Positions 4,588 to 62,929 of a stretch of DNA of 64,000 bases are shown piece by piece. The translations under genes were made by a program, and so were the position numbers. The stretch is from Candidatus Woesearchaeota archaeon (GTDB lineage: Archaea > Nanobdellota > Nanobdellia > Pacearchaeales > GW2011-AR1). The notes below the pieces were generated by a model. It did no database searches. It saw only the letters and a program-made list of their open reading frames with translations, and was not told where the DNA came from. Position 1 is the first letter of the stretch. The number at the start of each line of letters is the position of its first letter. The stretch spans positions 5,403 to 69,402 of the forward strand of contig CAZNQS010000001.1 of NCBI GenBank assembly GCA_964575515.1, written 5' to 3'.

Positions 4588-6291
4588 CTAAAACTTCTTA
4601 ATCCTCGCAATCTCGTCCAAAATTCTCAACTCATTATCAGACAACAAATCCTTATTTTTCTTGAAATTCTTGAAATCACTGGCGCTGATATCAGAATACA
4701 AATATTTCTTATCGCCCAAGCGCCTTTCAAAATTCACTCCTGGCAAGGAAACTGCCAATTCCTCTCCATCTTTAGCTTCAAGAATTTTCTCTTTCTCTTT
4801 CTGTAAACCCTTCACTCGAGCAACTTTCTCTCCGCTCTCGTCAATCAAAGGCAGTCCAATTTTAATCCTGCCTCCCAAAACTCTAACTCCAAAAATCGCT
4901 GGATTTAAATTTCTAAAAACAAAGTTATGCAAAATCTCTAATTTGCAAATGCTCGCAAGTTCCATTAATCTACCCTTTTCTATCTCCTCCTGTCTTTTTT
5001 TACGCCATTCTTGTAAATTCTCAATCAGCTTATAAATAACTTCATCAACTAATATTTTAACATTCCCACTTTCCACATTCTCCTCAATAGGAACATTAAA
5101 TCCAATCACAATCGCATCCAAAGGAGCTATCTCAAAATTAGCCTTAGCAGAAATAATATCGCCCTTACTTATAGGCCCTATCCCAGCTTTAACAATCCTA
5201 ATATTTTCTGCCCTTAACAAACTAATCAAAGCATCCAAACTTCCAAGCGAATCCGCCTTGACAATTATACCCTGCTTATCCAACTCCAAAGCACGGGATA
5301 ATTCCTTTCTGAATATTCTCTTTAACTCGTCAAGATTATTATTAAATTTCTGAAAAGGCATTCCTGGAAGAACGCCCTCTTTATTTGTTAAATGAATTCT
5401 GATTCCAGAAGCAGCATTAGCACTTTTAACAGATTTGTATCTGAAAGATAAAGGCTCAATCTCCTCTAATGCCCTTACTTTTGATACAATAGGCTCTGAA
5501 AAACTAGCAATGACAATCTCATCTCCAATTTTTAATGCCCCATCATATAAAATAGACTCAATATAATTAATAGCTTTCTCTTTTTTTATTTCCAATATGA
5601 TGCCCTTGGCTTCATTAGAAATTTCCAATCTTTCCTTTAAGAATTTCTGGCATAAGCCGCATAACACCAGTAACAATTCAGCAATGCCCTCTCCAGTCCT
5701 TGCAGAGCAGGGAACAATTGCAACGTTTTTCCTAAAATCATAAATATCATAATATAAACCAGAGTCAAAACCATGCCCATTCAATGCTTCCTGAAAAGCC
5801 AGCAGCGCCTCCTGAAATTCCTGGCTGACATGAATTACCTGATTATTAATAGAATCCCTTAAACTGCCAGGATGATATCTCCAGCCAGAAATTGAATCAA
5901 TCTTATTCAACGCAATCAAAAATGGAGTTTTATATGCCTTCAAAATCTGCAAAACCTCTGCAGTTTGAGGCTTGATTCCCTCCTTAATACTAACCACTAA
6001 GATAGCCAAATCTGCTAAAGAGCCTCCTCTCTTTCTCAAATTAGTAAAAGCAGCATGCCCCGGCGTGTCAATAAACAAAAATCCGGGAATGTCAAGCTTA
6101 ACGTTTCCTGCATCAATCAAGGGACAGGCCTTTCTAATCTGCTCTAAAGGATATTTAGTATAAGATATCTTCTGCGTTATTCCGCCAGCCTCTCCTTCTT
6201 GAATAGATGTTCCTCTAAATCTGTCAAGTAGCGATGTTTTTCCGTGGTCTACATGCCCCACTATAGTAACTATTGGTTGTCTGATTTTCAT
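4588..6291 (-). CDS. infB: translation initiation factor aIF5B (IF2-like GTPase)
   Basis: VTIVGHVDHGKTSLLD, DTPGH and NKID motifs, 567 aa with the aIF5B four-domain length. Confidence 0.92.
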   Translation of the reverse strand: MKIRQPIVTIVGHVDHGKTSLLDRFRGTSIQEGEAGGITQKISYTKYPLEQIRKACPLIDAGNVKLDIPGFLFIDTPGHAAFTNLRKRGGSLADLAILVVSIKEGIKPQTAEVLQILKAYKTPFLIALNKIDSISGWRYHPGSLRDSINNQVIHVSQEFQEALLAFQEALNGHGFDSGLYYDIYDFRKNVAIVPCSARTGEGIAELLLVLCGLCQKFLKERLEISNEAKGIILEIKKEKAINYIESILYDGALKIGDEIVIASFSEPIVSKVRALEEIEPLSFRYKSVKSANAASGIRIHLTNKEGVLPGMPFQKFNNNLDELKRIFRKELSRALELDKQGIIVKADSLGSLDALISLLRAENIRIVKAGIGPISKGDIISAKANFEIAPLDAIVIGFNVPIEENVESGNVKILVDEVIYKLIENLQEWRKKRQEEIEKGRLMELASICKLEILHNFVFRNLNPAIFGVRVLGGRIKIGLPLIDESGEKVARVKGLQKEKEKILEAKDGEELAVSLPGVNFERRLGDKKYLYSDISASDFKNFKKNKDLLSDNELRILDEIARIKKF

Positions 6292-7162: not shown

Positions 7163-8006
7163 GTTTATATTAATCCCTGCAATACTAATACTCAATATCC
7201 TTTTAGCGAGCGCCATATCAATAAGTTCTATATCAAGCTCCCCAGAACAAATAGCACCGGGACAAACAGCAACTATTTCATTAGAAATTGAAAATAATCT
7301 CAATGAAGACGCAGAAAATATACAGATAGCCTTAGATTTTCTATCTAATAATATACCAATAGCCCCACATTTATCAAGCTCAGAGCAAACAATAGAGGAA
7401 ATAAAAGAAGACAAAGAAGAATTTCTTGAATTTGATATTATCGTTCTGCCAGAAGCAAAATCAGGCGTGTATAAAATTCCTGTAAAAATATCCTACGAAA
7501 TAAACAACAAGAAAGACGAAAAAACAGGATTAATAAGCATCTTAGTTAACGCAGAGCCAAAAATAACTATCTCAGCTGAAAGCGCACTCATCAAGGGCGA
7601 AGAAAGTCAGGTTATAATAAGAATAATTAATGATGGTCTAACTGACGTTAAATTCATTAGTGTGGAGGCAATCAATCCACCAAGAGCAAAAATAAATTCA
7701 AAGACCTATGAATATATAGGAAATCTAGACAGCGACGACTTTGATACAATAGAATACTCTATATTCACAGAAGAAAATGCCCCATCACAAATAACAATCC
7801 CATTAATAATAAACTACAAAGACTCTTCAAATAAAGATTTCACAAAAACAGAATCAATAAAGCTTCCAGTTTATACAAAAAAAGAAGCGCAAAGCCTCGG
7901 GCTTATAGAAAAACCTAATTATACAATCTATATCGTCATAGCGGCTATTATCCTAATATTTATCGCATACAGAATAATAAAATATCTTAGAAAAAGAAAA
8001 CAATAA
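7125..8006 (+). CDS. secreted beta-rich protein with a C-terminal TM anchor (S-layer/CARDB-like ABC accessory protein)
   Basis: Signal/TM segment ILIPAILILNILLASA and a C-terminal TM followed by a basic tail. It sits between the ABC ATPase and the permease. An alternative ATG is at 7140. Confidence 0.5.
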   Translation: MEGLKMQKHGKNKFILIPAILILNILLASAISISSISSSPEQIAPGQTATISLEIENNLNEDAENIQIALDFLSNNIPIAPHLSSSEQTIEEIKEDKEEFLEFDIIVLPEAKSGVYKIPVKISYEINNKKDEKTGLISILVNAEPKITISAESALIKGEESQVIIRIINDGLTDVKFISVEAINPPRAKINSKTYEYIGNLDSDDFDTIEYSIFTEENAPSQITIPLIINYKDSSNKDFTKTESIKLPVYTKKEAQSLGLIEKPNYTIYIVIAAIILIFIAYRIIKYLRKRKQ

Positions 8007-12464: not shown

Positions 12465-14888
12465 TTACAATTTAATTTCTGCCCTTATCGCAGTAGGCGC
12501 CTCTCCTCCATGCCAAGTAAACCTGGGCCTTACTCTAACAGGATACAATCTCTCTGAATTATCATCTAAGATTACGGCAGAACCCTTCAAAGAAGGCAGC
12601 TCATCCATTTGCTGCTTAATATCCTCTAATAAATAAGTCTGCATAATATCATTTAACGCTTCGACATCTGGTTTTGAGGTAACTCTATGCGCTATAACTA
12701 TATCAGATTGAGTCATAACATCCTTATGAATCTGCCCTGGTTGTTGAGTCGCTAAAACTAAGGATATGCCCGGCTGCCTACCTTCTCTCAAAAGCTGCTT
12801 GAGGGCATCTGTTGCAGGTGTTACAGCATCTCTCGGTAAAAATTCTTGTGCCTCATCAATAAATATCCAAACCAATGGCTCTGCTCTCTCACTGCTATAA
12901 GACAAATAATCCTGTCCATGACGAATTGACTCCAATTCTTCCTCTTTGCGGGCGTCCATCCTAACTTTAAACAATTTTCTGGTAATAAGAGATATCACTA
13001 GCGCCCTGATATTATAAGCCCCGATAGAGCTGTAAACAGACACGTCAAGAACGCTGGTAGTTCCTGCCTTAATCAAGTCGGAGATTTCAGTCCCCTCTTT
13101 CTCTCTTGAAAATATCCCCCAATTATCTGCGGCGCTGAAAAGTGTTGAGGCTATCTCCTTTGTATTAGAATTTGCCTTTCTGTCATGCTCAATTGCCATT
13201 TGAATATCCTCTAAAGTGAAATTAACAAGTTTATCTCTCAATTCTGTAATCATTCTTTGTATCAAGACAGCAGGAAGCGAAGTCAAAGGAAGATTAAAAA
13301 GCGTAATCCAATCCTCTGCCTCTAACTCAGATATCTTTATTGCAAATGTGTCATCAACAGGGATATTTTTTTCCTTATACTCATCCACTTTCCCAAAAGG
13401 AACAAAAATCCTAACTGGCAAAGATTTAGTCCCCAACTGCCATTCTCTCAATAAGTCCTTATCCTTTTCGTTCTCATATTTCATTGTCCAGAATATTCCC
13501 ATTGTATCAAATATAAGAGAAGCGATGTTTCGCGATACTTCAAAAGGGAGATTAGCAAGTTCTTCGGCGATTACTCCTAATGTGTAACTTTTGCCGGAAT
13601 TATGTGAGATTATTCCATTTGCTATAAAAGAATGATTTTTCGGAACCATTAAATCATATACTTCTGCAATACCTTCTACTTCTGTAATATTTTTTATTCT
13701 TTTGCATACTAAATTTTCTCCAATATACCTTGTCTTTCTTCTTTTGGTATTATTGAATTTATGATTGTTTAATTTTTCTTGTTTTGACTTTATGATGAAA
13801 CCTATTTTCTTAAAATTATCTACTGATTGATTATCTGTGATAAATAATCTATAACTTTCAAATTCTTTTCCATCCAATTTTGATATTTTTTCTCTTATAC
13901 TAGACTCTATTTTGAAGTGACCTAATAATAGTTGCAAGCCTAATACAAATTCTTTAGATTTTGAGGAATATTCTATATATCTCCCTGTTTTTTCTATATA
14001 ACCATCACAACAGAACAAGGCATTTATAAAATTAGCTTTGAATTCATTTGAGCTTTTAAAAACAATTCTTGGTATTCTTATTATAGCACTTTTATTCCCT
14101 TTGGGAATATCCAAAGAAATAAATTTATTAATTATTCTTTGATCTAAAACCTGAACAACTTCACAATTACAATCATTTCTTTGATATCTCTTTGCATATG
14201 TGTCAAATTCATTTTCTAAATCTTCTTTTGCTTGCGAGAGAACTTCATTATCTGCATTAAATATTCTTATTCTAGCTTTTGTACCATTATACCAATAACC
14301 TTTACCATCCTTATACAATCCCTTCCTAATCGAAATATTACCATCAGCTAAAATATATCCTAAAAGCCTGGCTAGCCTCATACTTTCATTACCGCCCTTT
14401 ATTTCTGGCAGTTCTATTGGTAAGACTATCTTATCTCCAATCTTTAATTCTTTTGCCTTTCTCCAGAAATTATATTTTCCATATGAACTTAATAATGGAT
14501 GTTCTTTAGTCATAATTATTTCCCTGCCATCTTCAAATTCTATTTTAAAAAGTTTTTCATTTTCTATTGGATATTGTAAAAGTTTAGCATTTTCCCAATC
14601 AAATTCTTTGGTTTCTTTGTTAAATGAAAGAATTCTATCATTATTTTCATCAAATTCTTTAATTTTTTTATACCCTTTATCTGTAAATATAAGAGTTCCT
14701 CCTTCTAGACAACCCCTTTTTCCAGCAACTAAAACAACGTGGCTTCTCGCCACATCCATGTAAATCTTATTCGACAAAGAAGTATAATTCCCCATTTTCA
14801 CATATCCCTTACCAATGTAAATCAACCCTTTATCTCCAAACCTCTCTTTGTCAGAAGCATCTCTCCCTATTATTATGTCATATGTCAT
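12465..14888 (-). CDS. HerA/FtsK-superfamily (DUF87-like) ATPase interrupted by an intein
   Basis: The Walker A is split as VAGKRG|C..HN|SGKSYTLG. Walker B is WIFIDEAQEF, followed by LATQQPG and a C-terminal RPRFTWHGGE. The mature extein is 436 aa. Confidence 0.8.
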   Translation of the reverse strand: MTYDIIIGRDASDKERFGDKGLIYIGKGYVKMGNYTSLSNKIYMDVARSHVVLVAGKRGCLEGGTLIFTDKGYKKIKEFDENNDRILSFNKETKEFDWENAKLLQYPIENEKLFKIEFEDGREIIMTKEHPLLSSYGKYNFWRKAKELKIGDKIVLPIELPEIKGGNESMRLARLLGYILADGNISIRKGLYKDGKGYWYNGTKARIRIFNADNEVLSQAKEDLENEFDTYAKRYQRNDCNCEVVQVLDQRIINKFISLDIPKGNKSAIIRIPRIVFKSSNEFKANFINALFCCDGYIEKTGRYIEYSSKSKEFVLGLQLLLGHFKIESSIREKISKLDGKEFESYRLFITDNQSVDNFKKIGFIIKSKQEKLNNHKFNNTKRRKTRYIGENLVCKRIKNITEVEGIAEVYDLMVPKNHSFIANGIISHNSGKSYTLGVIAEELANLPFEVSRNIASLIFDTMGIFWTMKYENEKDKDLLREWQLGTKSLPVRIFVPFGKVDEYKEKNIPVDDTFAIKISELEAEDWITLFNLPLTSLPAVLIQRMITELRDKLVNFTLEDIQMAIEHDRKANSNTKEIASTLFSAADNWGIFSREKEGTEISDLIKAGTTSVLDVSVYSSIGAYNIRALVISLITRKLFKVRMDARKEEELESIRHGQDYLSYSSERAEPLVWIFIDEAQEFLPRDAVTPATDALKQLLREGRQPGISLVLATQQPGQIHKDVMTQSDIVIAHRVTSKPDVEALNDIMQTYLLEDIKQQMDELPSLKGSAVILDDNSERLYPVRVRPRFTWHGGEAPTAIRAEIKL
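13599..14711 (-). mobile_element. 371-aa intein with a LAGLIDADG homing-endonuclease domain, inserted in the P-loop
   Basis: Starts at Cys (CLEGGTLIF). Block B is TKEHPLL, the LAGLIDADG motifs are LLGYILADGNI and ALFCCDGYI, and it ends ..IISHN followed by a +1 Ser. Confidence 0.85.
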
Positions 14889-23245: not shown

Positions 23246-23709
23246 TAATTAATTCCCCTTTTTATTCTAATTAGATTTTTATTTAATTAATAAGAATATA
23301 TAAATCTTATTACTTATTCATATAAGAATTTCTTAATATATCTTTCTAAGACTTCAAATGGAATTGCAGTATGCATCTACAATTTTAAAAGCCTATTTCT
23401 CCTAGTTTTCTTAGAACATCCTTGATTTCATTGATAAATCTCTGTTGCTCTTTTTTATCAGACGTTCTTAAAAACTTGATTAATAAATCACTTAGTTCCT
23501 CTTTTTTCAGAATTTTTATTTTGAATCCAAACAGCAACAAAATAAAATCTATAAGAACTATGTTTTAGTTCTTTTATAACAATCCCTCCAACTTATCCAA
23601 CAGCCTTGCCTTTATAGGAATTTTCTTCAAGAGTTTTCATTAACTCAATTTACCTTTATATAAGAAGAATTAGCGATAAGATTATTAATATATGATTTTT
23701 ATGTAATAA

Positions 23710-24402
23710 ATGAATAGAGGTGTTAGGGTTACTTATTTAATTATAATAGGTATAATTATTATTTTTATTTTAAGTATTGTAGTACAAAAATATGGAAATT
23801 ATTTCAAGCAAAATATTATTGATAAGGATTCTAATTACCAATACGAAATATGTGATGGGGGTGAGTGTAGATATATTATAATAAACAATATCATAGAGCC
23901 GAGCAGCGAAACGCGCAATGTATGTAATAATCAAGGCTTATGCGAGGATGTTCCAGTGAATAGACTGTTGCTTAAACATGGGACAGATAAGGAATATTGT
24001 TCAAATGCGCCTTATCTTGGATCAAGTTATGTGGATAATTGGTGGAATGCAAATGGCTTGATTGATGAATGCGAAATGCCGCCAAAAGCGGATATGCAAT
24101 TTGCATTTAAGCAGCATAATGGGTCTTTCTTGGGTCATACTGGTACAATCCAAATTACATTAACTCCTATAAATTACGAAAATAATTATCTTGCCTTACA
24201 AATATTGATTGGAGAAGATAATAATTTTGATGAGCTTCCTGATGAATGGATTTTTTGCGGAAATGTTGACAGCATTCATGGAAAGGATAAGAAAATAATT
24301 AATTGTAGCGGAACTAATATGAAATTCGTTAAGTTAGTGAGTCCTGAATGGAATCCTTCTAGTTTGTATTTAGATTATATTTTAATATTGAGGGCAGATT
24401 GA
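23710..24402 (+). CDS. secreted/anchored Cys-rich protein
   Basis: N-terminal TM and multiple Cys residues. The beta-rich C-terminal part may be a carbohydrate-binding-like fold. Confidence 0.45.
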   Translation: MNRGVRVTYLIIIGIIIIFILSIVVQKYGNYFKQNIIDKDSNYQYEICDGGECRYIIINNIIEPSSETRNVCNNQGLCEDVPVNRLLLKHGTDKEYCSNAPYLGSSYVDNWWNANGLIDECEMPPKADMQFAFKQHNGSFLGHTGTIQITLTPINYENNYLALQILIGEDNNFDELPDEWIFCGNVDSIHGKDKKIINCSGTNMKFVKLVSPEWNPSSLYLDYILILRAD

Positions 24403-24616
24403 TTCTGCTGTGCTGGATGCTCGTGGCAGAAGGGTGTGAACTCCACAATATATCTACATCATAGAGATATAACACTCTTAATGTACCCGTATAAAAATAT
24501 TATATTTTCTTCTTTTAGCATATCGAATCGGAATGCAACACACTCAAATTTCAGATGTTTATAATGTAGACAAGATTGTAGAAAAGTTTAAATATGTAGT
24601 CACCTATTAATAGAGT

Positions 24617-25549
24617 ATGTATATTGAGAGAAGGAAAGCAAGGGGTAAGATAAGATACTATTTAGGACATTCATTCAGAGAAGGTGGAAAAGTACATAAA
24701 TTAAGGAAATTTCTTGGCTCTGATTTAGATGAGAAGACTCTTAGTGAGCGGGCAGAAAAGGCCAAAGCTTTAATCTTAGAAGAAATTCAGAAATATCAAA
24801 TTATTCGCGACCCTTTAAAGGTTGAACTTTCTGAAGAAGAGATTGTATATTTACGCAATCTTGAGAAGAAAATTCCGCTTAAAGTAGATCATCTCTCAGA
24901 AAAAGATTGGCAAAGATTTACCGAGTTATTTACCTATAGCACAAACGCGATTGAAGGAAGCGAACTTAACAGTAAAGAAGTTAAAGAAATTCTTGAAGAA
25001 GATAAATGGCCTGATAAATCTAAGGAAGACATTGCTGAAGCCTATGGAGTAAATGATGCAATTGAATTTATTAGGAAAATTAGAGAGCATATCTCTTTAG
25101 AGTTTATACTTGAATTACATAAACTCGTTTTTAAGAATTCCAAAAATTTTGCCGGACAATTTAGAAAACCTGGAGAGGAGGTCGTTGTTATGGGAGGAGG
25201 AAAGATTGTTCATCAAGGTGCACCTCAATCGAGAATTGTTAGACTTTTGAAAGAGCTTATAGAGTGGTATGAGAAAAATAAAAGTAAATATCCGGGTATT
25301 GTATTAGCGGCAGTTGTACATAATCAGTTTGAGAATATTCACCCTTTTAGAGACGGAAATGGAAGAGTGGGAAGATTATTGTTAAATAACATTCTCCTGA
25401 AACATGATTTGCCACCTGTGAATATTGATTTGAAGAATAGGCAGGAGTATTATAAGGCATTACAGTCGTATGATAAGGAATATAACCTGCGACCGATGAT
25501 TGAGCTTATTCTTAAAGAATATAAGACTCTTAAAAGAATTTTGAAGTAA
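24617..25549 (+). CDS. Fic/DOC family protein
   Basis: Canonical Fic motif HPFRDGNGRVGR. Confidence 0.85.
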   Translation: MYIERRKARGKIRYYLGHSFREGGKVHKLRKFLGSDLDEKTLSERAEKAKALILEEIQKYQIIRDPLKVELSEEEIVYLRNLEKKIPLKVDHLSEKDWQRFTELFTYSTNAIEGSELNSKEVKEILEEDKWPDKSKEDIAEAYGVNDAIEFIRKIREHISLEFILELHKLVFKNSKNFAGQFRKPGEEVVVMGGGKIVHQGAPQSRIVRLLKELIEWYEKNKSKYPGIVLAAVVHNQFENIHPFRDGNGRVGRLLLNNILLKHDLPPVNIDLKNRQEYYKALQSYDKEYNLRPMIELILKEYKTLKRILK

Positions 25550-25745
25550 GATAGTGTAGACAAAAAATGTAGACAATTTATATTTTGTAGACATGCTCCT
25601 GCCGAGCAAGAATACAAGTTGTCCAATCTAATGGGACTCTCTCTTTTTTTATTATGTTTGCTGGAGTAATTAAAAAGACGGATTTTTAATAATTCTAGTT
25701 GTTGTTTAAAATAATTTAAAAAAAGAAAAATTAATATCCAATTAT

Positions 25746-26000
25746 TTAATCATTACAACTATTAGGGATTACTTCATCTGGTACTAGTCCTGCAAGATGG
25801 GCTTGAACATCAGCACCAATACCGTCTGTGGTAGAAGCCAGTCCTGAAATAAGTCCACCAAAAGCAGATCCGCCTTGCGCATATCCTGAAACATCTTCCC
25901 CAAGACAAGCCTGATTATTGGGTTGAGCTGCAAATACTAAAGTTACTGAAGTTGCAAGAAGCGCTATAGCCATAAAAGCCATCAAAATTACTTTTTTCAT
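25746..26000 (-). CDS. small secreted protein (84 aa, signal peptide, 2 Cys)
   Basis: MKKVILMAFMAIALLATSVTLVFA. A GGAGGT Shine-Dalgarno lies at 26005-26010. The start was chosen at 26000 rather than 26063. Confidence 0.5.
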   Translation of the reverse strand: MKKVILMAFMAIALLATSVTLVFAAQPNNQACLGEDVSGYAQGGSAFGGLISGLASTTDGIGADVQAHLAGLVPDEVIPNSCND

Positions 26001-26134
26001 TTTTACCTCCGCATTATTTTGAATAAATACCTTCTTTATATACATTATTGTGTTATAAAACAATATAAAATCTGTATGCCCACTAAACTAGACAATTTGT
26101 AAGGATGCTCCTGCCGTAAGTGGAGCAGAGAAGC

Positions 26135-27133
26135 CTAGAGAAAAATATTCCAATAAGTCTCTGTCATCTCCTCGGCCATAAAATCAATAAGTTTTTGATA
26201 ATGTTCTTTATTTGCTTTTGAGAGATATGAAGGATCAGCGGTTCTTAATGCTTGTAAATATTTATCTCGTTTCTTCTTATGCACAATTACCGGAGGATAA
26301 TTGTTATTAATAAGGACAGCATCAAAGAGTATTCTTCCTGTTCTTCCATTACCATCCATGAAAGGATGTATTTTCTCGAATTTATGATGGAAAATAGTTG
26401 CTATAACTAATGGATGGAGATATTTCTTGCTTTGCTCATACCACTTAAATAAGATGTCCATATCAGTTTTTACATAGGGTGCAGGAGTTGCTTTAAAGTT
26501 TGCTCTTATAACTCTAACATCAGATGTCCTGTAACCCATTCTATCATCAATATTTTCCATGAGACTCTTGTGAATATTAATAATTAAATCATGTGAAAGC
26601 TCCTGTTTCTTCTCAAGCAAAAAAAGAAAAACTTTTTCTGTATTCTGCAAATCATAAATTTCTCTTAGGGTTCTATTTTTTGGAGTAAGCCCTTCGTCAA
26701 GAAGTTTCCTTGCTTCATCTAATTTGATAGTATTTCCCTCAATAGAAGCAGTATTATAGGCAAATTCTATAATAAAGTTTTTGTAAATTTCCTGTTTTGT
26801 GGGTGCAGGATTCTTTCGAAACTCGTTATTATAGTGGATTTTACATGCTTCTATTTCGGGAGTCTTGTCACCTAACCATTCATCTTTTTTTAGTTTGCTT
26901 TCCTTGGCTTTTTGAAGATACCGATTTGATTCCAGAAAATTATGGATTGTTTTATATGCTTTTCTTATTTTTTCAGAATGTTGAGGTAACTTTTCTAGAC
27001 TTTGTTTTATCTCCTCAAGAGAGCTTCCTAAGTATGCGATATCTTTTGCGATAACTTTTCCGTTCTTTCTTTCTGACGCTCTAAGGTAATAATATATTTT
27101 ATTTCCTACAGGCTTTTTGTAAATGTATACCAT
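26135..27133 (-). CDS. Fic/DOC family protein
   Basis: Fic motif HPFMDGNGRTGR. The N-terminal region is paralogous to the 24617 ORF. Confidence 0.85.
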   Translation of the reverse strand: MVYIYKKPVGNKIYYYLRASERKNGKVIAKDIAYLGSSLEEIKQSLEKLPQHSEKIRKAYKTIHNFLESNRYLQKAKESKLKKDEWLGDKTPEIEACKIHYNNEFRKNPAPTKQEIYKNFIIEFAYNTASIEGNTIKLDEARKLLDEGLTPKNRTLREIYDLQNTEKVFLFLLEKKQELSHDLIINIHKSLMENIDDRMGYRTSDVRVIRANFKATPAPYVKTDMDILFKWYEQSKKYLHPLVIATIFHHKFEKIHPFMDGNGRTGRILFDAVLINNNYPPVIVHKKKRDKYLQALRTADPSYLSKANKEHYQKLIDFMAEEMTETYWNIFL

Positions 27134-27204
27134 AGTTCTTTGAAGAAAAAAGAGTATTTAAATCTTTACCCTCTACTTTATGATTATCATATGTAGCGGG
27201 TATA

Positions 27205-27421
27205 TGCTCCTGCCGGGATTTGAACCCGGGTTTCCGCCGTTCTCCTCTGCCTTAAGAAAATTAAGGCATTGGTATACAAAGATTTGCATCTCTGTCTCCC
27301 CAACTCTTGCGAGCTGCAGATAATAAAATGCCTGTCCTAAGGAGGACTGAGATTATTATCTCAACGACTTAAATCTCGGCAATCGAGAGGGCGGTGTCCT
27401 TGGCCTCTAGACTACAAGAGC
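27205..27421 (-). tRNA. tRNA-Glu(CUC) with a ~143-nt intron in or next to the anticodon loop
   Basis: Hand fold: acceptor GCTCTTG/CAGGAGC, D arm GTCT-AGAGGCCAA-GGAC, anticodon stem CCGCC..GGCGG with loop CTCTCGA, and T arm CCGGG-TTCAAAT-CCCGG. The exact splice sites were not resolved. Confidence 0.72.
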
Positions 27422-27612
27422 TCATTAAAGAAACTAAAATTGAGGTATTTAAAAGACTATTGATTTTTCAGTTTAAAAGGTAAATAATAAATACAATAAT
27501 CAAAAGATCTAAAATTACATAGAAAGCAAATATATCATAGAACATATCTTCCATAGACATCTTAAGTTTACATAAAATTAACGCTCCGTTGACATAAGAA
27601 CTTATATGAAAA

Positions 27613-27852
27613 TCACTTCTTAAAAACCTTATATCCCTTTCTTACTTTTTGAGAAACTATAATTCCTATTTCATCCCCTTTTTTCGCGCTAGTAACATTC
27701 TTACGATTTATCTGCATACTCTTTACAATTTCCTCAAAATCCACATTCCCTCCTTTAATCTCTATCTTTTCACCTATTTTAAGTGGTTTAGAAAGTTTTA
27801 TTGCTGCTGCTTTTACATGGTCAAAATAGTTCGTAACTTCACCTATTTCCAT
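27613..27852 (-). CDS. small beta-barrel protein resembling translation-factor domain II (tentative)
   Basis: 79 aa with KIGEKIEIKG..AKKGDEIGI. Confidence 0.35.
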   Translation of the reverse strand: MEIGEVTNYFDHVKAAAIKLSKPLKIGEKIEIKGGNVDFEEIVKSMQINRKNVTSAKKGDEIGIIVSQKVRKGYKVFKK

Positions 27853-27890
27853 ATCATAATAGAAGATTAAAGGGTATATAAGTTTTATTG

Positions 27891-28457
27891 TTAGAGTAAA
27901 AGAAATATCAAAATTCCCAATGAATGCAAAACTAAACTGAAAATTACTATTAGTATTGATTTTATCTCGGGCAATCCTGCCAATATTGTAATGGCTATTT
28001 CATCAGGAATCGGAGAAGCCATTATAAAACCTACAAAAATATACATAATATAAGTTTTCACTCTATGACTTAAACTTCTCGAAAAAACTTCTCTTATCTC
28101 CTTAAATCTTTTTGTATTTTCTAATTTTATTAATTCGTCTGCAAATGAGATCTTTATTAATTTGTATAATAATAAATTGCCTGTTGCAGAGCCAAGACCG
28201 CCCAAAATTGTAGCAACTAATAGGCTGTCTACATTTGCCGAAACCAAAAATCCTATTGCAAATGGAGTGGTAAAGCCAAATGAAAAAAAGAATCCTGCGA
28301 TAAACACGCCAAGATAGCTCAACTCATCAAGACTTAGAATTATATTATTAATAAATGGATTTTTAAAAAGGAGATATGCAATTATTATAGACACTGCCAA
28401 GAATATTAATTTAGGATATTTTATTTTGAACAGTCTTTTCATCTCTTTCTCCCGCAT
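27891..28457 (-). CDS. integral membrane protein
   Basis: 188 aa with about 5 TM segments. Confidence 0.5.
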   Translation of the reverse strand: MREKEMKRLFKIKYPKLIFLAVSIIIAYLLFKNPFINNIILSLDELSYLGVFIAGFFFSFGFTTPFAIGFLVSANVDSLLVATILGGLGSATGNLLLYKLIKISFADELIKLENTKRFKEIREVFSRSLSHRVKTYIMYIFVGFIMASPIPDEIAITILAGLPEIKSILIVIFSLVLHSLGILIFLLL

Positions 28458-28459
28458 TA

Positions 28460-28532
28460 TAGCCCCACCAGGATTCGAACCTGGGTCTACGGGACCAGAA
28501 CCCGCAATGCTTGACCACTACACCATAGGGCT
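28460..28532 (-). tRNA. tRNA-Gln(CUG)
   Basis: Hand fold: acceptor AGCCCTA/TGGGGCT, D arm GTGT-AGTGGTCAA-GCAT, anticodon arm GCGGG-TTCTGGT-CCCGT, and T arm CCAGG-TTCGAAT-CCTGG. Confidence 0.85.
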
Positions 28533-29423
28533 GTCTATAATCTTTAATCTTTCTATGTGCTTTAAATTAGAAAAATTTATCTCTTTTAAATACTTGCTTA
28601 TATCACTTTTTCTGGAGATAAAAAATTGCTTATTCACGATTATTTTAGAAGGGAAGAATCCAAGTTTTATGAAAGCATTTCTAGTATCTATTAATAGCTT
28701 CATATTATAATTAGTAAAACTAAGCCTTATTAATTTCGGATCTTTATTAGACATACGAAAAACTGATCCATCAGTGTCTATTAATCCCCTTACGCAGGCT
28801 TTTAAGAAAGATTCATTTTCCCATACCCAATAAGGTATTGTAATTTGATTTTTTATTTTGTCTCCGGCATTTAATCCCATATCTATAAAAAATTCCACTA
28901 ATTCTTTACTATAAATATCGAGAAATCTTTCATTTGGTCTCAATATTTCTTTAGCTTTCAGATTAAAGATATTTTCACATAAATTCTTTAAATAATTTAT
29001 ATGGTAATCTTTATCTTTTTCCAAATCGCCCGCTATTCTTATGTGATAAACTCCTATCTTCTTCCCCTTTTTATAATAATTTATATTTCCATCCCCTAAA
29101 ATCGCCCCTATAAATTCAGCTAGTTTTTCATTTAGGGCAGGTTTAATTAATTTTATTTTAGATCCATTGGAAATTTTTCCCCCTTTAGATTTTCCCCAAT
29201 TATCTTCTAATATTTCTTCTATATAATTATCGAAATTAACTTTTGCAATTAAACATAATTCTCTGTATTTAATTTCTGGCAAGAGCCTCATTTCATTTCT
29301 TAATTCGAAATATAGATATTTTTCATTTAATTTTAATTTTTTAGCTAATTCTTTCCAAGTTAAATTAAATTTAGCCAATAGAATCAATTCTTTTTGCTTA
29401 CCCGCTTTTAATTTTATTCTCAT
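28518..29423 (-). CDS. double-motif LAGLIDADG homing endonuclease-like protein
   Basis: FIGAILGDGNI and VRGLIDTDGSV. The last 15 nt overlap the 5' end of tRNA-Gln. Confidence 0.85.
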   Translation of the reverse strand: MRIKLKAGKQKELILLAKFNLTWKELAKKLKLNEKYLYFELRNEMRLLPEIKYRELCLIAKVNFDNYIEEILEDNWGKSKGGKISNGSKIKLIKPALNEKLAEFIGAILGDGNINYYKKGKKIGVYHIRIAGDLEKDKDYHINYLKNLCENIFNLKAKEILRPNERFLDIYSKELVEFFIDMGLNAGDKIKNQITIPYWVWENESFLKACVRGLIDTDGSVFRMSNKDPKLIRLSFTNYNMKLLIDTRNAFIKLGFFPSKIIVNKQFFISRKSDISKYLKEINFSNLKHIERLKIIDSPMV

Positions 29424-29462
29424 TCAATTTGATAATCAATTTAAATATATATAATTTACTAT

Positions 29463-29484
29463 TTGACCACTAGACTATGGGGCT
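29463..29484 (-). pseudogene. orphan tRNA 5' fragment (acceptor strand plus D-arm start)
   Basis: AGCCCCATAGTCTAGTGGTCAA is 19/22 identical to nt 1-22 of tRNA-Gln at 28532. It is perfectly complementary to that tRNA's 3' acceptor strand TGGGGCT. Confidence 0.6.
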
Positions 29485-29564
29485 ATAAAATCTCCTAATC
29501 TTTAAATCTTTTAAACCTTCCCAAAATAAGATATATTTAAATTCACATCTTGCCTATTTAAAAA

Positions 29565-30623: not shown

Positions 30624-30659
30624 TTATATTTTTATACGATTTTATGTCTCTCATTATAA

Positions 30660-30759
30660 GCCTCTATAGCTCAGCCGGTTAGAGCGCAGCATTGGTAAGT
30701 TGCAAAAAACTGAATATCCAAATATGCTGAGGTCCCGAGTTCGATTCTCGGTAGAGGCT
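30660..30759 (+). tRNA. tRNA-Thr(GGU) with a 26-nt canonical (37/38) intron at 30698-30723
   Basis: Acceptor GCCTCTA/TAGAGGC, D arm GCTC-AGCCGGTTA-GAGC, anticodon stem CAGCA/TGCTG with loop TTGGTA|intron|A, and T arm CCGAG-TTCGATT-CTCGG. The TTGG/CCAA pairing fits a BHB central helix. Confidence 0.85.
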
Positions 30760-30817
30760 TTTTCAATCAACTAAACCAATCAGTTAACTATAAAAAGACA
30801 TTTTTTATTAGTCTAAT

Positions 30818-55444: not shown

Positions 55445-56125
55445 ATGGATCTATCTAAAAGAAATAGAAAGGTCGCCATATCTCGTTGGAAAAAACATCT
55501 AATATATAATCAGAGTAGAATATATTCAGGTAAAGACGTGGAAGTTATGAAGGCCGCGCTATGTGGTTTTCTTGCAGGAGACGGAAGCGTACAAGTAAGA
55601 AAAGGAAAGTCTTTTTCACATTATCAACTAGATTTTTTCCCGGATGATATCCGTATGCTAAAAAAGTATCTAAGTTTAATGAAGAGAGTGTATAAAACAA
55701 TACCTTCTATTACTAGAAGAGACAATGTCTTTGCAGCCAGGTTATTTCAGAAATTTATAGTATTGGATTTGCTTAAAATATCTAAGTTTGGTGTATATAA
55801 TTGGAATATCCCCAATTGGATTATGAAAAATGATCTAAACAAAAAAGCCTGGCTTCGAGCATTTTTTTCTGCAGAAGGTTATGTAAATCAAAAATATATT
55901 AAAACGCAAAGCGTTAATCTTATAGGGATAAGTAAAGTGTCTCATTTATTAGATAGTATGGATATATCTCATCGTGTTTATTACTATAAACCAAAAAACA
56001 CAAATCACTCAAAAGTAGCTTTATTATTTATAAGCCCATTTAAGTCTAGAATAAAATTCTATAAAGAAATTGGTTTTTGGCATTTAAAAAAAGAAAGAAA
56101 ACTAAGAGAAACGTTAGGTTTATAA
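55445..56125 (+). CDS. double-motif LAGLIDADG homing endonuclease-like protein
   Basis: LCGFLAGDGSV and LRAFFSAEGYV. It has its own TATA-like aaaatataaata about 25 nt upstream. Confidence 0.8.
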   Translation: MDLSKRNRKVAISRWKKHLIYNQSRIYSGKDVEVMKAALCGFLAGDGSVQVRKGKSFSHYQLDFFPDDIRMLKKYLSLMKRVYKTIPSITRRDNVFAARLFQKFIVLDLLKISKFGVYNWNIPNWIMKNDLNKKAWLRAFFSAEGYVNQKYIKTQSVNLIGISKVSHLLDSMDISHRVYYYKPKNTNHSKVALLFISPFKSRIKFYKEIGFWHLKKERKLRETLGL

Positions 56126-56149: not shown

Positions 56150-56231
56150 GCTGATGTTGAGCAGTGGTAGCTCGCTTGCTTGGAGAGCAAGTTTCCTTAC
56201 AGATATGCAGGTTCGATTCCTGCCATCAGCG
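56150..56231 (+). tRNA. class II tRNA, probably tRNA-Ser(GGA)
   Basis: Acceptor GCTGATG/CATCAGC with G73, 3-bp D stem GAG/CTC, anticodon arm CTTGC-TTGGAGA-GCAAG, a 15-nt variable region (poorly paired), and T arm GCAGG-TTCGATT-CCTGC. Confidence 0.62.
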
Positions 56232-56235
56232 TATA

Positions 56236-56281
56236 ACTCGCTTTCCGCAAGGATTTCCAGGTTCGATTCCTGGTCCGGGCG
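56236..56281 (+). other. tRNA 3' piece (D-stem 3' strand, variable hairpin, T arm, acceptor strand) lacking an anticodon arm
   Basis: ACTC-G-C-TTTCC-GCAA-GGATTT-CCAGG-TTCGATT-CCTGG-TCCGGGC-G. It aligns to the preceding tRNA with exactly the anticodon arm missing. Confidence 0.6.
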
Positions 56282-56302
56282 TTAATCTTAAGGCTCAATT
56301 AA

Positions 56303-56635
56303 TTAGTTTTTCAGAAAAGAACAAACCTCATTTACAATTTCATCAAATTTTTCTTGCTTTAATGATCCAACTTTATATTTTATCAACGATTTATCAATAG
56401 AAGCAATTTTATCTATTCTAATGTAACTCTCCATTTTAAGACTTCCTTGTCTAAAATCTTCTTTCTTTATCTGAATCTCAACTAGTTTTTCATATGAGGC
56501 GCCGGTTATTTGTAAAACGATAACATCTTCACCTTTAGGAACTTTCAAGATCAAAACAGGCCTTCTTTTTGACTTTTTTAAATTAGAATAAGGAAACTCA
56601 ATTACTACAATATCTCTCCTTACAAATCCTTCCAC
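56303..56635 (-). CDS. mazF: MazF/PemK-family endoribonuclease toxin
   Basis: RRDIVVIEFPYSN..KRRPVLIL.. Confidence 0.85.
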   Translation of the reverse strand: MEGFVRRDIVVIEFPYSNLKKSKRRPVLILKVPKGEDVIVLQITGASYEKLVEIQIKKEDFRQGSLKMESYIRIDKIASIDKSLIKYKVGSLKQEKFDEIVNEVCSFLKN

Positions 56636-56838
56636 GCTTCATCCTCTTCTTTATTAAGCCAGTTTTTAGCAAGAGATTTTTCAGATAAAATTGTCCATTC
56701 GGGAATAGATTTTTTAATAATTATTTCATCATCTTTTTTAATCACAATTAGTTTGTCTCCTTCTTTTATGTCTTTTCTCATGTCAAGAGGAATAACAATC
56801 TGGCCCCTCGAACTCATTTTAGTTGTATCAATTTGCAT
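56620..56838 (-). CDS. mazE: AbrB/MazE/SpoVT-family antitoxin
   Basis: SSRGQIVIPLDMRKDIKEGDKLIV. It overlaps mazF by 16 nt. Confidence 0.8.
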   Translation of the reverse strand: MQIDTTKMSSRGQIVIPLDMRKDIKEGDKLIVIKKDDEIIIKKSIPEWTILSEKSLAKNWLNKEEDEAWKDL

Positions 56839-56839
56839 A

Positions 56840-56857
56840 AATAAGATTAATCTTATT
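56840..56857. promoter_or_regulatory. perfect 18-bp palindrome between the TATA box and the mazE ATG (putative operator)
   Basis: aataagattaatcttatt. The TATA-like atttaaat lies at 56861-56868. Confidence 0.55.
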
Positions 56858-56931
56858 TATATTTAAATCCTTTGGTTTTCGAGTCCGGGCGTCCCAAGAA
56901 TCTTTAAATAATCTATGCCCTATTATTTATA

Positions 56932-60736: not shown

Positions 60737-62655
<1,919 letters not shown>

Positions 62656-62656
62656 T

Positions 62657-62929
62657 TTATCCTTCCAATTTAGCAATAATATCCTTAAATTCAACAATCA
62701 AGAACTTCTCGTTGTTTATCTCTATCTCCTCAGATGAATAGCCGGCATATAAAACCTTATCCCCCTGATGCAATGGAATCCTCGAGCCGTCTTTAAATGT
62801 CCCAACTTCATGCACAATGCCTTGTTTTTTCTCATCACTCCCTTTCGGCAAGTATATTCCAGACTTAGTTCTGTCTTCCGTCTTTATCGGTTTTAAAACA
62901 ACGCGCTCTCCAATTGGTGTGATTTTCAT
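62657..62929 (-). CDS. groS: co-chaperonin GroES
   Basis: MKITPIGERVVLKP..KSGIYLP..G.V..VG.. Confidence 0.9.
   Translation of the reverse strand: MKITPIGERVVLKPIKTEDRTKSGIYLPKGSDEKKQGIVHEVGTFKDGSRIPLHQGDKVLYAGYSSEEIEINNEKFLIVEFKDIIAKLEG

Follow-up and report, generated by a model that had tools for sequence, protein, structure and literature searches.

How a tRNA gene comes to be followed by a row of single-gene units, separated from one another by copies of the last nucleotides of that tRNA, is the question raised by a 64-kb stretch of DNA (contig CAZNQS010000001.1), which is referred to here over its full length as the window. Three units lie beyond the 3' end of a tRNA-Glu(CUC) gene, carrying in order a Fic gene (Fic2), a gene for a putative secreted peptide and a second Fic gene (Fic1). 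The answer we favour, as likely rather than established, is that serial site-specific integration at the tRNA-Glu 3' end built an array of mini-elements that lack an integrase. The window has a GC content of 33.9%. Since it encodes archaeal informational genes (RFC, aIF2-gamma and PheRS), and since the closest homologues of its Fic protein come from Woesearchaeota, Pacearchaeota and Nanoarchaeota metagenome-assembled genomes, the host was taken to be a DPANN archaeon. The array and its immediate surroundings are made up as follows:

27205-27421, minus strand: tRNA-Glu(CUC) gene, with exon 1 at 27384-27421, a 144-nt intron at 27240-27383 and exon 2 at 27205-27239 (ARAGORN, introns allowed)
27204-27215, minus strand: core copy 1 (attL-like), made up of the final 11 nt of the tRNA and 1 flanking nt, reading CGGCAGGAGCAT on the tRNA strand
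26117-27203, minus strand: Fic2 cassette of 1087 bp, coding sequence at 26135-27133, Pfam Fic match
26105-26116, minus strand: core copy 2, exact 12-mer
25605-26104, minus strand: secreted-peptide cassette of 500 bp, coding sequence at 25746-26000, with a GGAGG ribosome-binding site, a TATA-like box at about 26040 and TAGACAATTT at 26089-26098
25593-25604, minus strand: core copy 3, exact 12-mer
24429-25592, plus strand: Fic1 unit, coding sequence at 24617-25549 on the strand opposite to the cores, Pfam Fic match
24399-24442, minus strand: degenerate distal end of the array, aligned with the distal ends of the related loci L003, L147 and L186
23710-24402, plus strand: gene for a 230-aa membrane-anchored protein just past the distal end, no Pfam match

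The tRNA-Glu gene has an intact 3' end and CCA is not encoded. Default ARAGORN and Rfam (gathering threshold) miss the gene and only intron-aware ARAGORN detects it; this prediction bears out the claim of an earlier, sequence-only reading that 27204-27215 comprises the last 11 nt of tRNA-Glu and one flanking nucleotide. The tRNA-Thr(GGU) gene at 30659-30760 of the window is also intron-bearing. Read on the plus strand, the 12-mer ATGCTCCTGCCG occurs exactly three times in the window (25593-25604, 26105-26116 and 27204-27215), always in that orientation, and it was matched in none of 100 dinucleotide shuffles of the window, which rules out a chance origin. These three copies had been reported from the sequence alone, together with a 10-mer, TAGACAATTT, lying 6-13 nt from two of them; both observations were confirmed, the 10-mer being found at 25570 and 26089 (13 and 6 nt, respectively, to the left of the cores). 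The repeat-bounded units measure 1087 bp (26117-27203), 500 bp (25605-26104) and about 1164 bp (24429-25592) and hold one gene each, encoding Fic2, an 84-aa protein and Fic1, in agreement with the earlier description. Direct repeats identical to the tRNA-Glu 3' end flank the inserts while the tRNA itself is intact, as is characteristic of elements integrated at tRNA genes, and tRNA-Glu(CUC) acts as the attB-bearing gene of the array. A foreign base composition of the array was rejected, as its GC content (0.31-0.36) is the same as that of the flanks.

The distal ends of the arrays in L003, L147 and L186 read AGTTCRCACC...CAGCA-CGGCAGGAGCAT. Positions 24399-24442 of the window are homologous to them and include a T-loop-like AGTTCACACC at 24433-24442; this distal arm has the same orientation at all four loci. 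A decayed fourth copy of the repeat had been placed at 24417. The homologous distal ends show that the region is real; its exact register is ambiguous, since a core can be set at 24417-24428 (9/12 matches) or, based on the alignment, at 24399-24410 (8/12). The 230-aa protein encoded at 23710-24402 had no homologue in any of the fetched syntenic loci; it may be further cargo of the island, its membership being uncertain.

The tRNA-Glu loci of related genomes, whose comparison had been proposed along with the earlier reading, differ in the cassettes that they carry. In the syntenic relative L102/L109 the gene order is RFC-DisA-p79-tRNA-Glu-YdjM-112aa-72aa-PheRS, and tRNA-Glu is followed by 129 nt and then by YdjM, with no array, representing an unoccupied target site. 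An apparent core in L102 at +170 proved to be YdjM coding sequence and not a repeat. Relative to this order, the segment of the window containing tRNA-Glu, p79 and the array (23246-29564) is inverted; it also holds tRNA-Gln and a LAGLIDADG gene absent from L102/L109.

A metagenome scan with the tRNA-Glu 3' end yielded 120 loci, 68 of them without an encoded CCA. An extra GGCAGGAGCAT (allowing one mismatch) was found downstream in 14 of these 68, the other 54 having no extra core. At the loci without CCA, 17 exact cores lie downstream, while upstream there are none (one with a single mismatch), and the reverse strand has none. Some distant "extra cores" at CCA-encoding tRNA-Glu loci were discarded as one-mismatch chance matches, being as frequent upstream. 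The core-bounded units in the metagenomes hold an NYN-domain gene or small open reading frames (ORFs), or lack an ORF. Those without an ORF measure 65-115 nt, directly follow tRNA-Glu, each end in (A/G)CCGGCAGGAGCAT and are strongly structured, with folding z-scores of -4.4 to -6.4. One type (type A: L055, L088, L107, L135, L105, L117 and L186) folds into a hairpin and a tRNA-minihelix-like 12-bp imperfect helix which pairs an inverse core with the core. Units of a second type (type B: L067, L096, L085 and L137) open with the T-arm inverse, GGGATTTGAAC, and in L085 a unit of this type also follows a tRNA-Thr gene.

Members of the Fic2 clade at or above 83% identity all have the window's core on either side of the gene. 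The Fic2 unit has the same ends and different neighbours in the window, L003, L147, L186 and L105. In the window, L003 and L147 it is 1087-1088 bp long; homology begins at TACCC directly after the core and stops at the next core, with a nucleotide identity of about 80% between the window and L147. L147, which is syntenic with the window, carries a tRNA-Glu-like gene followed by a unit with a 71-aa ORF, Fic2 and a Fic1-type gene, each bounded by cores; its Fic2 is 85% identical to that of the window, and the flanking host proteins are 49-69% identical. In L186, the closest relative (Fic2 90% identical), tRNA-Glu is followed by a 114-nt ORF-less unit, Fic2 and a forward Fic1-type gene, and in L105 by two ORF-less units and Fic2. 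L003, from the same sample and a different genome, has GGCAGGAGCAT at 4872, 5554 and 6653 and GGCGGGAGCAT at 7280, and its array consists of a MazE/ParE pair, Fic2, and a third unit in which an integrase fragment accompanies a truncated Fic1. In L147 and L186, too, this core bounds the Fic1-type gene, the copy in L003 being the truncated one.

The 500-bp peptide cassette is absent from L147 and L186. As these hold a single core at the corresponding position, the cassette would be a later insertion at an internal core, and the Fic2-Fic1 pair looks like the older part of the array. The claim of serial integration at tRNA-Glu is supported, with one correction: Fic2 and a Fic1-type gene are adjacent in four genomes, and the three units probably did not each arrive independently. 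A 983-nt contig from a different sample (L185, SRR8863434) is 100% identical to window positions 25111-26093 and ends 11 nt from the core at 26105; the break, the one hint of excision as a circle, could reflect heterogeneity at this junction, or merely low coverage.

Serial integration at the tRNA-Glu 3' end is supported by the presence and absence of cassettes among relatives, the empty site, the enrichment of co-oriented cores downstream, and an integrase family which adjoins the same core elsewhere. In L003, an 89-aa ORF, its start 61 nt beyond a core, corresponds to the N-terminal part of a tyrosine recombinase family; it has 292 relatives. The relatives came from an exhaustive representative search; word-indexed protein searches with the 89-aa fragment and with the N-terminus from L097 gave no matches. 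Full-length members are about 400 aa long and combine a Phage_integrase domain (PF00589, conserved R, HxxR and Y) with a C-terminal zinc ribbon. L097 has an ORF that begins some 60 nt beyond its tRNA-Glu 3' end, runs into the contig end and corresponds to the N-terminal portion of this family (hhalign probability 98.8%). Among annotated proteins, archaeal pleomorphic provirus integrases come closest (36% identity over 92-96% of the length), one such gene standing first in a Pleolipoviridae record. Short proteins of 60-170 aa make up most of the 292 N-terminal relatives (proteins P0122-P0271), and in P0146 (305 aa) the integrase N-terminus is joined to an ABC-transporter membrane domain; the sequences suggest that integrase genes are often truncated or split. 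A viral origin of the cassette was not retained, as neither the tRNA-Glu 3' end nor the Fic2 operator/promoter occurs in any IMG/VR contig. Among known systems, the pleolipovirus SNJ2 integrates via a 14-bp core at a tRNA 3' end (PMC5861418), archaeal integrases generally prefer tRNA 3' ends, and both tandem integration and the loss of the integrase after integration are documented in archaea (PMC8371274).

In the mechanism proposed here, an attachment core of 12-13 bp, (C)CGGCAGGAGCAT, located where the tRNA-Glu gene ends at its 3' side, would serve a family of integrative elements of DPANN archaea. Each insertion by a tyrosine integrase would rebuild the tRNA end and add one copy of the core downstream. 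Because each event would leave an extra core, successive arrivals would stack by tandem accretion, and any core copy, internal ones included, could receive the next element, as the peptide cassette may have done between the older Fic2 and Fic1. The units of the window would be integrase-less mini-elements resembling cis-mobilizable elements (CIMEs), with a core at both ends and their own promoter, and would form discrete, exchangeable modules. Like CIMEs arranged by tandem accretion, they have att sequences at both ends and no genes for integration or transfer, and neighbouring units share an att site. Movement, if there is any today, would need an integrase supplied in trans, or in cis from a newly arrived neighbour. 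The candidate is the zinc-ribbon family of about 400 aa related to pleolipovirus integrases; the repeats, the intact tRNA, the boundaries of the modules, their presence or absence in different genomes, the empty site and the link of this family to the same core elsewhere are observed, and from them we infer that this family made the junctions of the window and that the units may still be mobilisable. The sequence-only reading had offered accretion in trans or heavy erosion of elements. Both accretion and erosion are visible at these loci, the latter being clearly at work in the truncated integrase and Fic1 of L003 and in the decayed distal end of the window. On this reading the array follows a known principle, the tandem accretion of CIME-like elements, on an unusually small scale, its units being single genes or bare sites. 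No report of such mini-cassette arrays in DPANN archaea was found in the literature, and a 2021 review of archaeal tyrosine recombinases makes no mention of DPANN (PMC8371274).

A number of observations weigh against, or are left unexplained by, serial integration of such mini-elements. Pfam scans of most ORFs of the window and a family hidden Markov model run on all six-frame ORFs detected no recombinase or fragment of one, as had been stated from the sequence alone, and crude scans of all ORFs for an RHRY motif were negative. No complete integrase element bounded by the core was recovered, the one in L097 being interrupted where its contig stops and that in L003 being a fragment. Neither circular junctions nor variants within the population were seen. 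The array in L003 is headed by no tRNA-Glu and there is none nearby. As Fic2 and the Fic1-type gene travel together in four genomes (the window, L003, L147 and L186), the single-gene units are not clearly independent. The orientation of the Fic1-type gene varies between fixed arms, reversed relative to the cores in the window (24617-25549) and in L147 (9142-10062) and forward in L186 (1961-2860) and L003 (7058-7297), for which serial integration offers no explanation. The inverse core is enriched upstream of cores, yet is not universal. Elsewhere, Fic2 homologues have longer, locus-specific repeats (38-110 nt) on both sides or lie at another tRNA, so that one integrase specificity is insufficient. 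An integrase-less island of 3.26 kb at a different tRNA in L149 (1-3302) starts with a Fic2 homologue (80% identical), placed 2 nt beyond the tRNA 3' end.

The L149 island is bounded by an exact 14-nt repeat of the 3' end of that tRNA (..CCCGTCGGGGCCAT) and contains Fic2, a 92-aa ORF, WYL and NYN proteins and an antitoxin-ParE pair. The locus-specific direct repeats are imperfect and enclose the Fic2 homologues of L004, L014, L020, L022 and L024, near which no integrase was found; in L024 both repeat copies encode the C-terminus and stop of a neighbouring zinc-finger gene, as read from the translated flank. Given the locus-specific repeats, L149, the Fic1 flips and the enrichment of the inverse core, an attC-like or Fic-linked mechanism is possible but unproven.

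The alternative that survives best, though we consider it somewhat unlikely, accepts the same origin by integration at tRNA-Glu and regards the units as dead relics of larger integrase elements, shaped by vertical inheritance and by deletions between cores, without mobility. Clean single-gene units, found repeatedly, are not expected from random deletion, and the 500-bp unit lies exactly between two cores. Erosion of this kind would account for the truncated integrase and Fic1 inside the L003 array, the decayed distal core of the window, the degenerate cores in L147 and L186 and the Fic2-Fic1 adjacency kept in four genomes, and it has a precedent in the documented loss of archaeal integrases after integration (PMC8371274). 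It would not account for the identical boundaries of the Fic2 unit in at least five contexts (array position 1, 2 or 3, or far from tRNA-Glu), nor for a Fic2 that is 85% identical between the window and L147 when the flanking host proteins are just 49-69% identical.

Compared with serial integration as outlined above, a bolder proposal is that a DPANN cassette exchange does the job of an integron, the tRNA 3' end being the primary site, the minihelix-like ends the recombination sites and a zinc-ribbon integrase in trans the agent that moves single genes (Fic, toxin-antitoxin, NYN and small secreted proteins) and ORF-less units; we regard this as a distinctly unlikely, tentative idea. An array that is integron-like in mechanism, with attC-like folded ends (an inverse core TGCTCC... 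paired with GGAGCA), the tRNA end as attI and a recombinase acting on structured single-stranded DNA, is very unlikely. The strong folding of the ORF-less units and the 12-bp imperfect helix that joins their inverse core and core are in its favour; the helix shows covariation (GGC/GCC versus GGT/ACC), and the 3' end of Fic2, ATGCTCC...GGAGCAT, becomes ATGCCC...GGGCAT in L187. Upstream of cores, the inverse core has a mean of 5.64 matches, compared with 4.53 in shuffles (shuffle maximum 5.08). Many junctions nevertheless have no inverse core, so a universal attC-like hairpin was not supported, and the hairpins of the window are weak (z about -2). Toxin-antitoxin pairs and small ORFs resemble the cargo of integron cassettes, but the cassettes here have their own promoters and occur in either orientation, and the window has neither IntI nor a GTTRRRY core, the core being CGGCAGGAGCAT. 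Described archaeal integrons have canonical attC sites and no link to tRNA (PMC9668308).

Two further explanations are extremely unlikely. Cores acting at the RNA level, as acceptor-stem mimics for RNase P/Z processing or termination of read-through transcripts from tRNA-Glu, would suit the co-orientation of every core with the tRNA, the likeness of small units to tRNA minihelices and the T-rich runs that frequently follow the core, but Fic1 is antisense to the cores in the window and L147 and sense in L186, the upstream core lies outside the promoter-to-stop transcript of Fic2, and the presence/absence differences and the integrase association indicate a role at the DNA level. Homologous or microhomology-driven insertion of circular DNA with short target identity and no dedicated recombinase is hardly to be credited either, as the window shows only 12 nt of identity with an abrupt end, the same core is found again in other genomes and an integrase family is associated with it, even though the 38-110-nt imperfect repeats around the Fic2 homologues of L004, L020, L022 and L024, and the duplicated 3' end of the neighbouring gene in L024, would fit such a process.

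The cargo was characterised by motif and structure comparisons. Fic1 and Fic2 carry the class II Fic AMP-transferase active-site motif HxFx(D/E)GNGRxxR (HPFMDGNGRTGR and HPFRDGNGRVGR in the window) and, in the same chain, an N-terminal inhibitory TxxxEG motif of the (S/T)xxxE(G/N) class, in which T128, E132 and G133 are invariant. Their closest relatives by sequence, by fold and among solved structures are FICD-like, and on these motifs both are assigned to the class II Fic AMP-transferases. The Fic2 family comprises about 6000 proteins of uniform length (332 aa). The N-terminal domain of Fic2 is predicted as three strands and a helix with a pLDDT (predicted local distance difference test) above 90; it gave no significant fold match, integrase arm-binding domains appearing only at E of about 2. 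A palindrome, TACCCNCTAC-N12-16-GTAGAGGGTA, is fused to a TTTAAATA TATA box upstream of Fic2 in every homologous locus examined, and the N-terminal domain may bind this conserved palindrome. In the window its arms lie at 27193-27201 and 27168-27176 and the TATA box at 27154-27161, and the coding sequence is followed by an 18-nt tail with a weak hairpin. In L149 the palindrome starts 2 nt after the core, as at other Fic2 loci, and in L022 and L023 a second TACCCNCTAC/GTAGAGGGTA copy lies downstream of the Fic2 homologue. As regards the claim that each unit has its own promoter, TATA-like boxes were identified by eye only; the TTTAAATA box of Fic2 is kept in all these loci. The 84-aa ORF (25746-26000, minus strand) has a hydrophobic N-terminus and no Pfam match. 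Repeats of TGTAGACA occur in the Fic1 unit at 24565, 25555, 25568 and 25586, that is, at both ends of Fic1; the window contains five occurrences versus 0.78 expected.

Several known systems resemble the array in part. As in the CIMEs and tandem accretion of ICESt1/ICESt3 in Streptococcus (PMC5704250), att sequences lie at both ends, the integrase has been lost, units are stacked at a tRNA 3' end and new arrivals enter an existing att copy; unlike there, the host is a DPANN archaeon, the units range in size between 65 nt and 1.2 kb and hold at most a single gene, there is no conjugation context and mobilisation is here a prediction. The tycheposon-built islands of Prochlorococcus (10.1101/2020.12.28.424599) are, by analogy, the nearest counterpart in overall outcome. 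In these, too, repeated tRNA integration pushes older elements inward, partial tRNA copies separate the elements, and fragmented integrases and cargo remain in streamlined genomes, but their att sites are about 40 nt long and the elements span several kb with integration and replication modules, as opposed to a 12-13-nt core and single genes. The SNJ2 pleolipovirus system (PMC5861418) shares a short core identical to the tRNA 3'-distal end (14 bp, compared with 12-13 nt here); the integrase family adjoining the core was compared with, and is most similar to, archaeal pleomorphic provirus integrases, no accessory Orf2/Orf3 or virus genes were seen, and the window encodes no integrase. Integrons and the integrase-less attC clusters known as CALINs, those of archaea included (PMC9668308), likewise consist of single-gene cassettes arrayed at one site, with toxin-antitoxin cargo and recombinase-less arrays usable in trans; they differ in having IntI, the attC GTTRRRY core and a common promoter, where the present cassettes have their own promoters, mixed orientation and a repeat that is a tRNA 3' end.

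Other features of the window were identified away from the array. A second mini-island spans 56150-56891. It begins with tRNA-Ser(GGA) at 56150-56231 and an orphan tRNA 3' fragment (T arm plus GTCCGGGCGT) at 56258-56282, followed by a MazF/PemK-MazE pair at 56303-56838 (minus strand) and by GGTTTTCGA-GTCCGGGCGT at 56874-56892; this makes a cassette of about 600 bp for a toxin-antitoxin pair, with an exact 10-nt tRNA-end-like repeat on either side. Positions 12465-14888 encode a DUF87/HerA-like ATPase that contains an intein and a LAGLIDADG domain, and two free-standing LAGLIDADG genes (28518-29423 and 55445-56125) each adjoin a tRNA gene. A GroEL-type chaperonin is encoded at 60737-62929 (Cpn60_TCP1 family in the syntenic locus L007), and the gene upstream of it is presumably GroES.

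DPANN genomes are tiny, and the means by which they gain or swap accessory genes are poorly known. The data suggest that tRNA-Glu is a recurrent hot spot at which tiny modules, many of them toxin- or defence-like, are stacked and exchanged, and a candidate integrase family was identified. Should single cassettes still be mobilised in trans, episymbiotic archaea would have a simple route of gene flow and, with a core of 12-13 bp, a natural minimal att system; if the units are relics, the locus would still be a clear record of repeated integration and decay.

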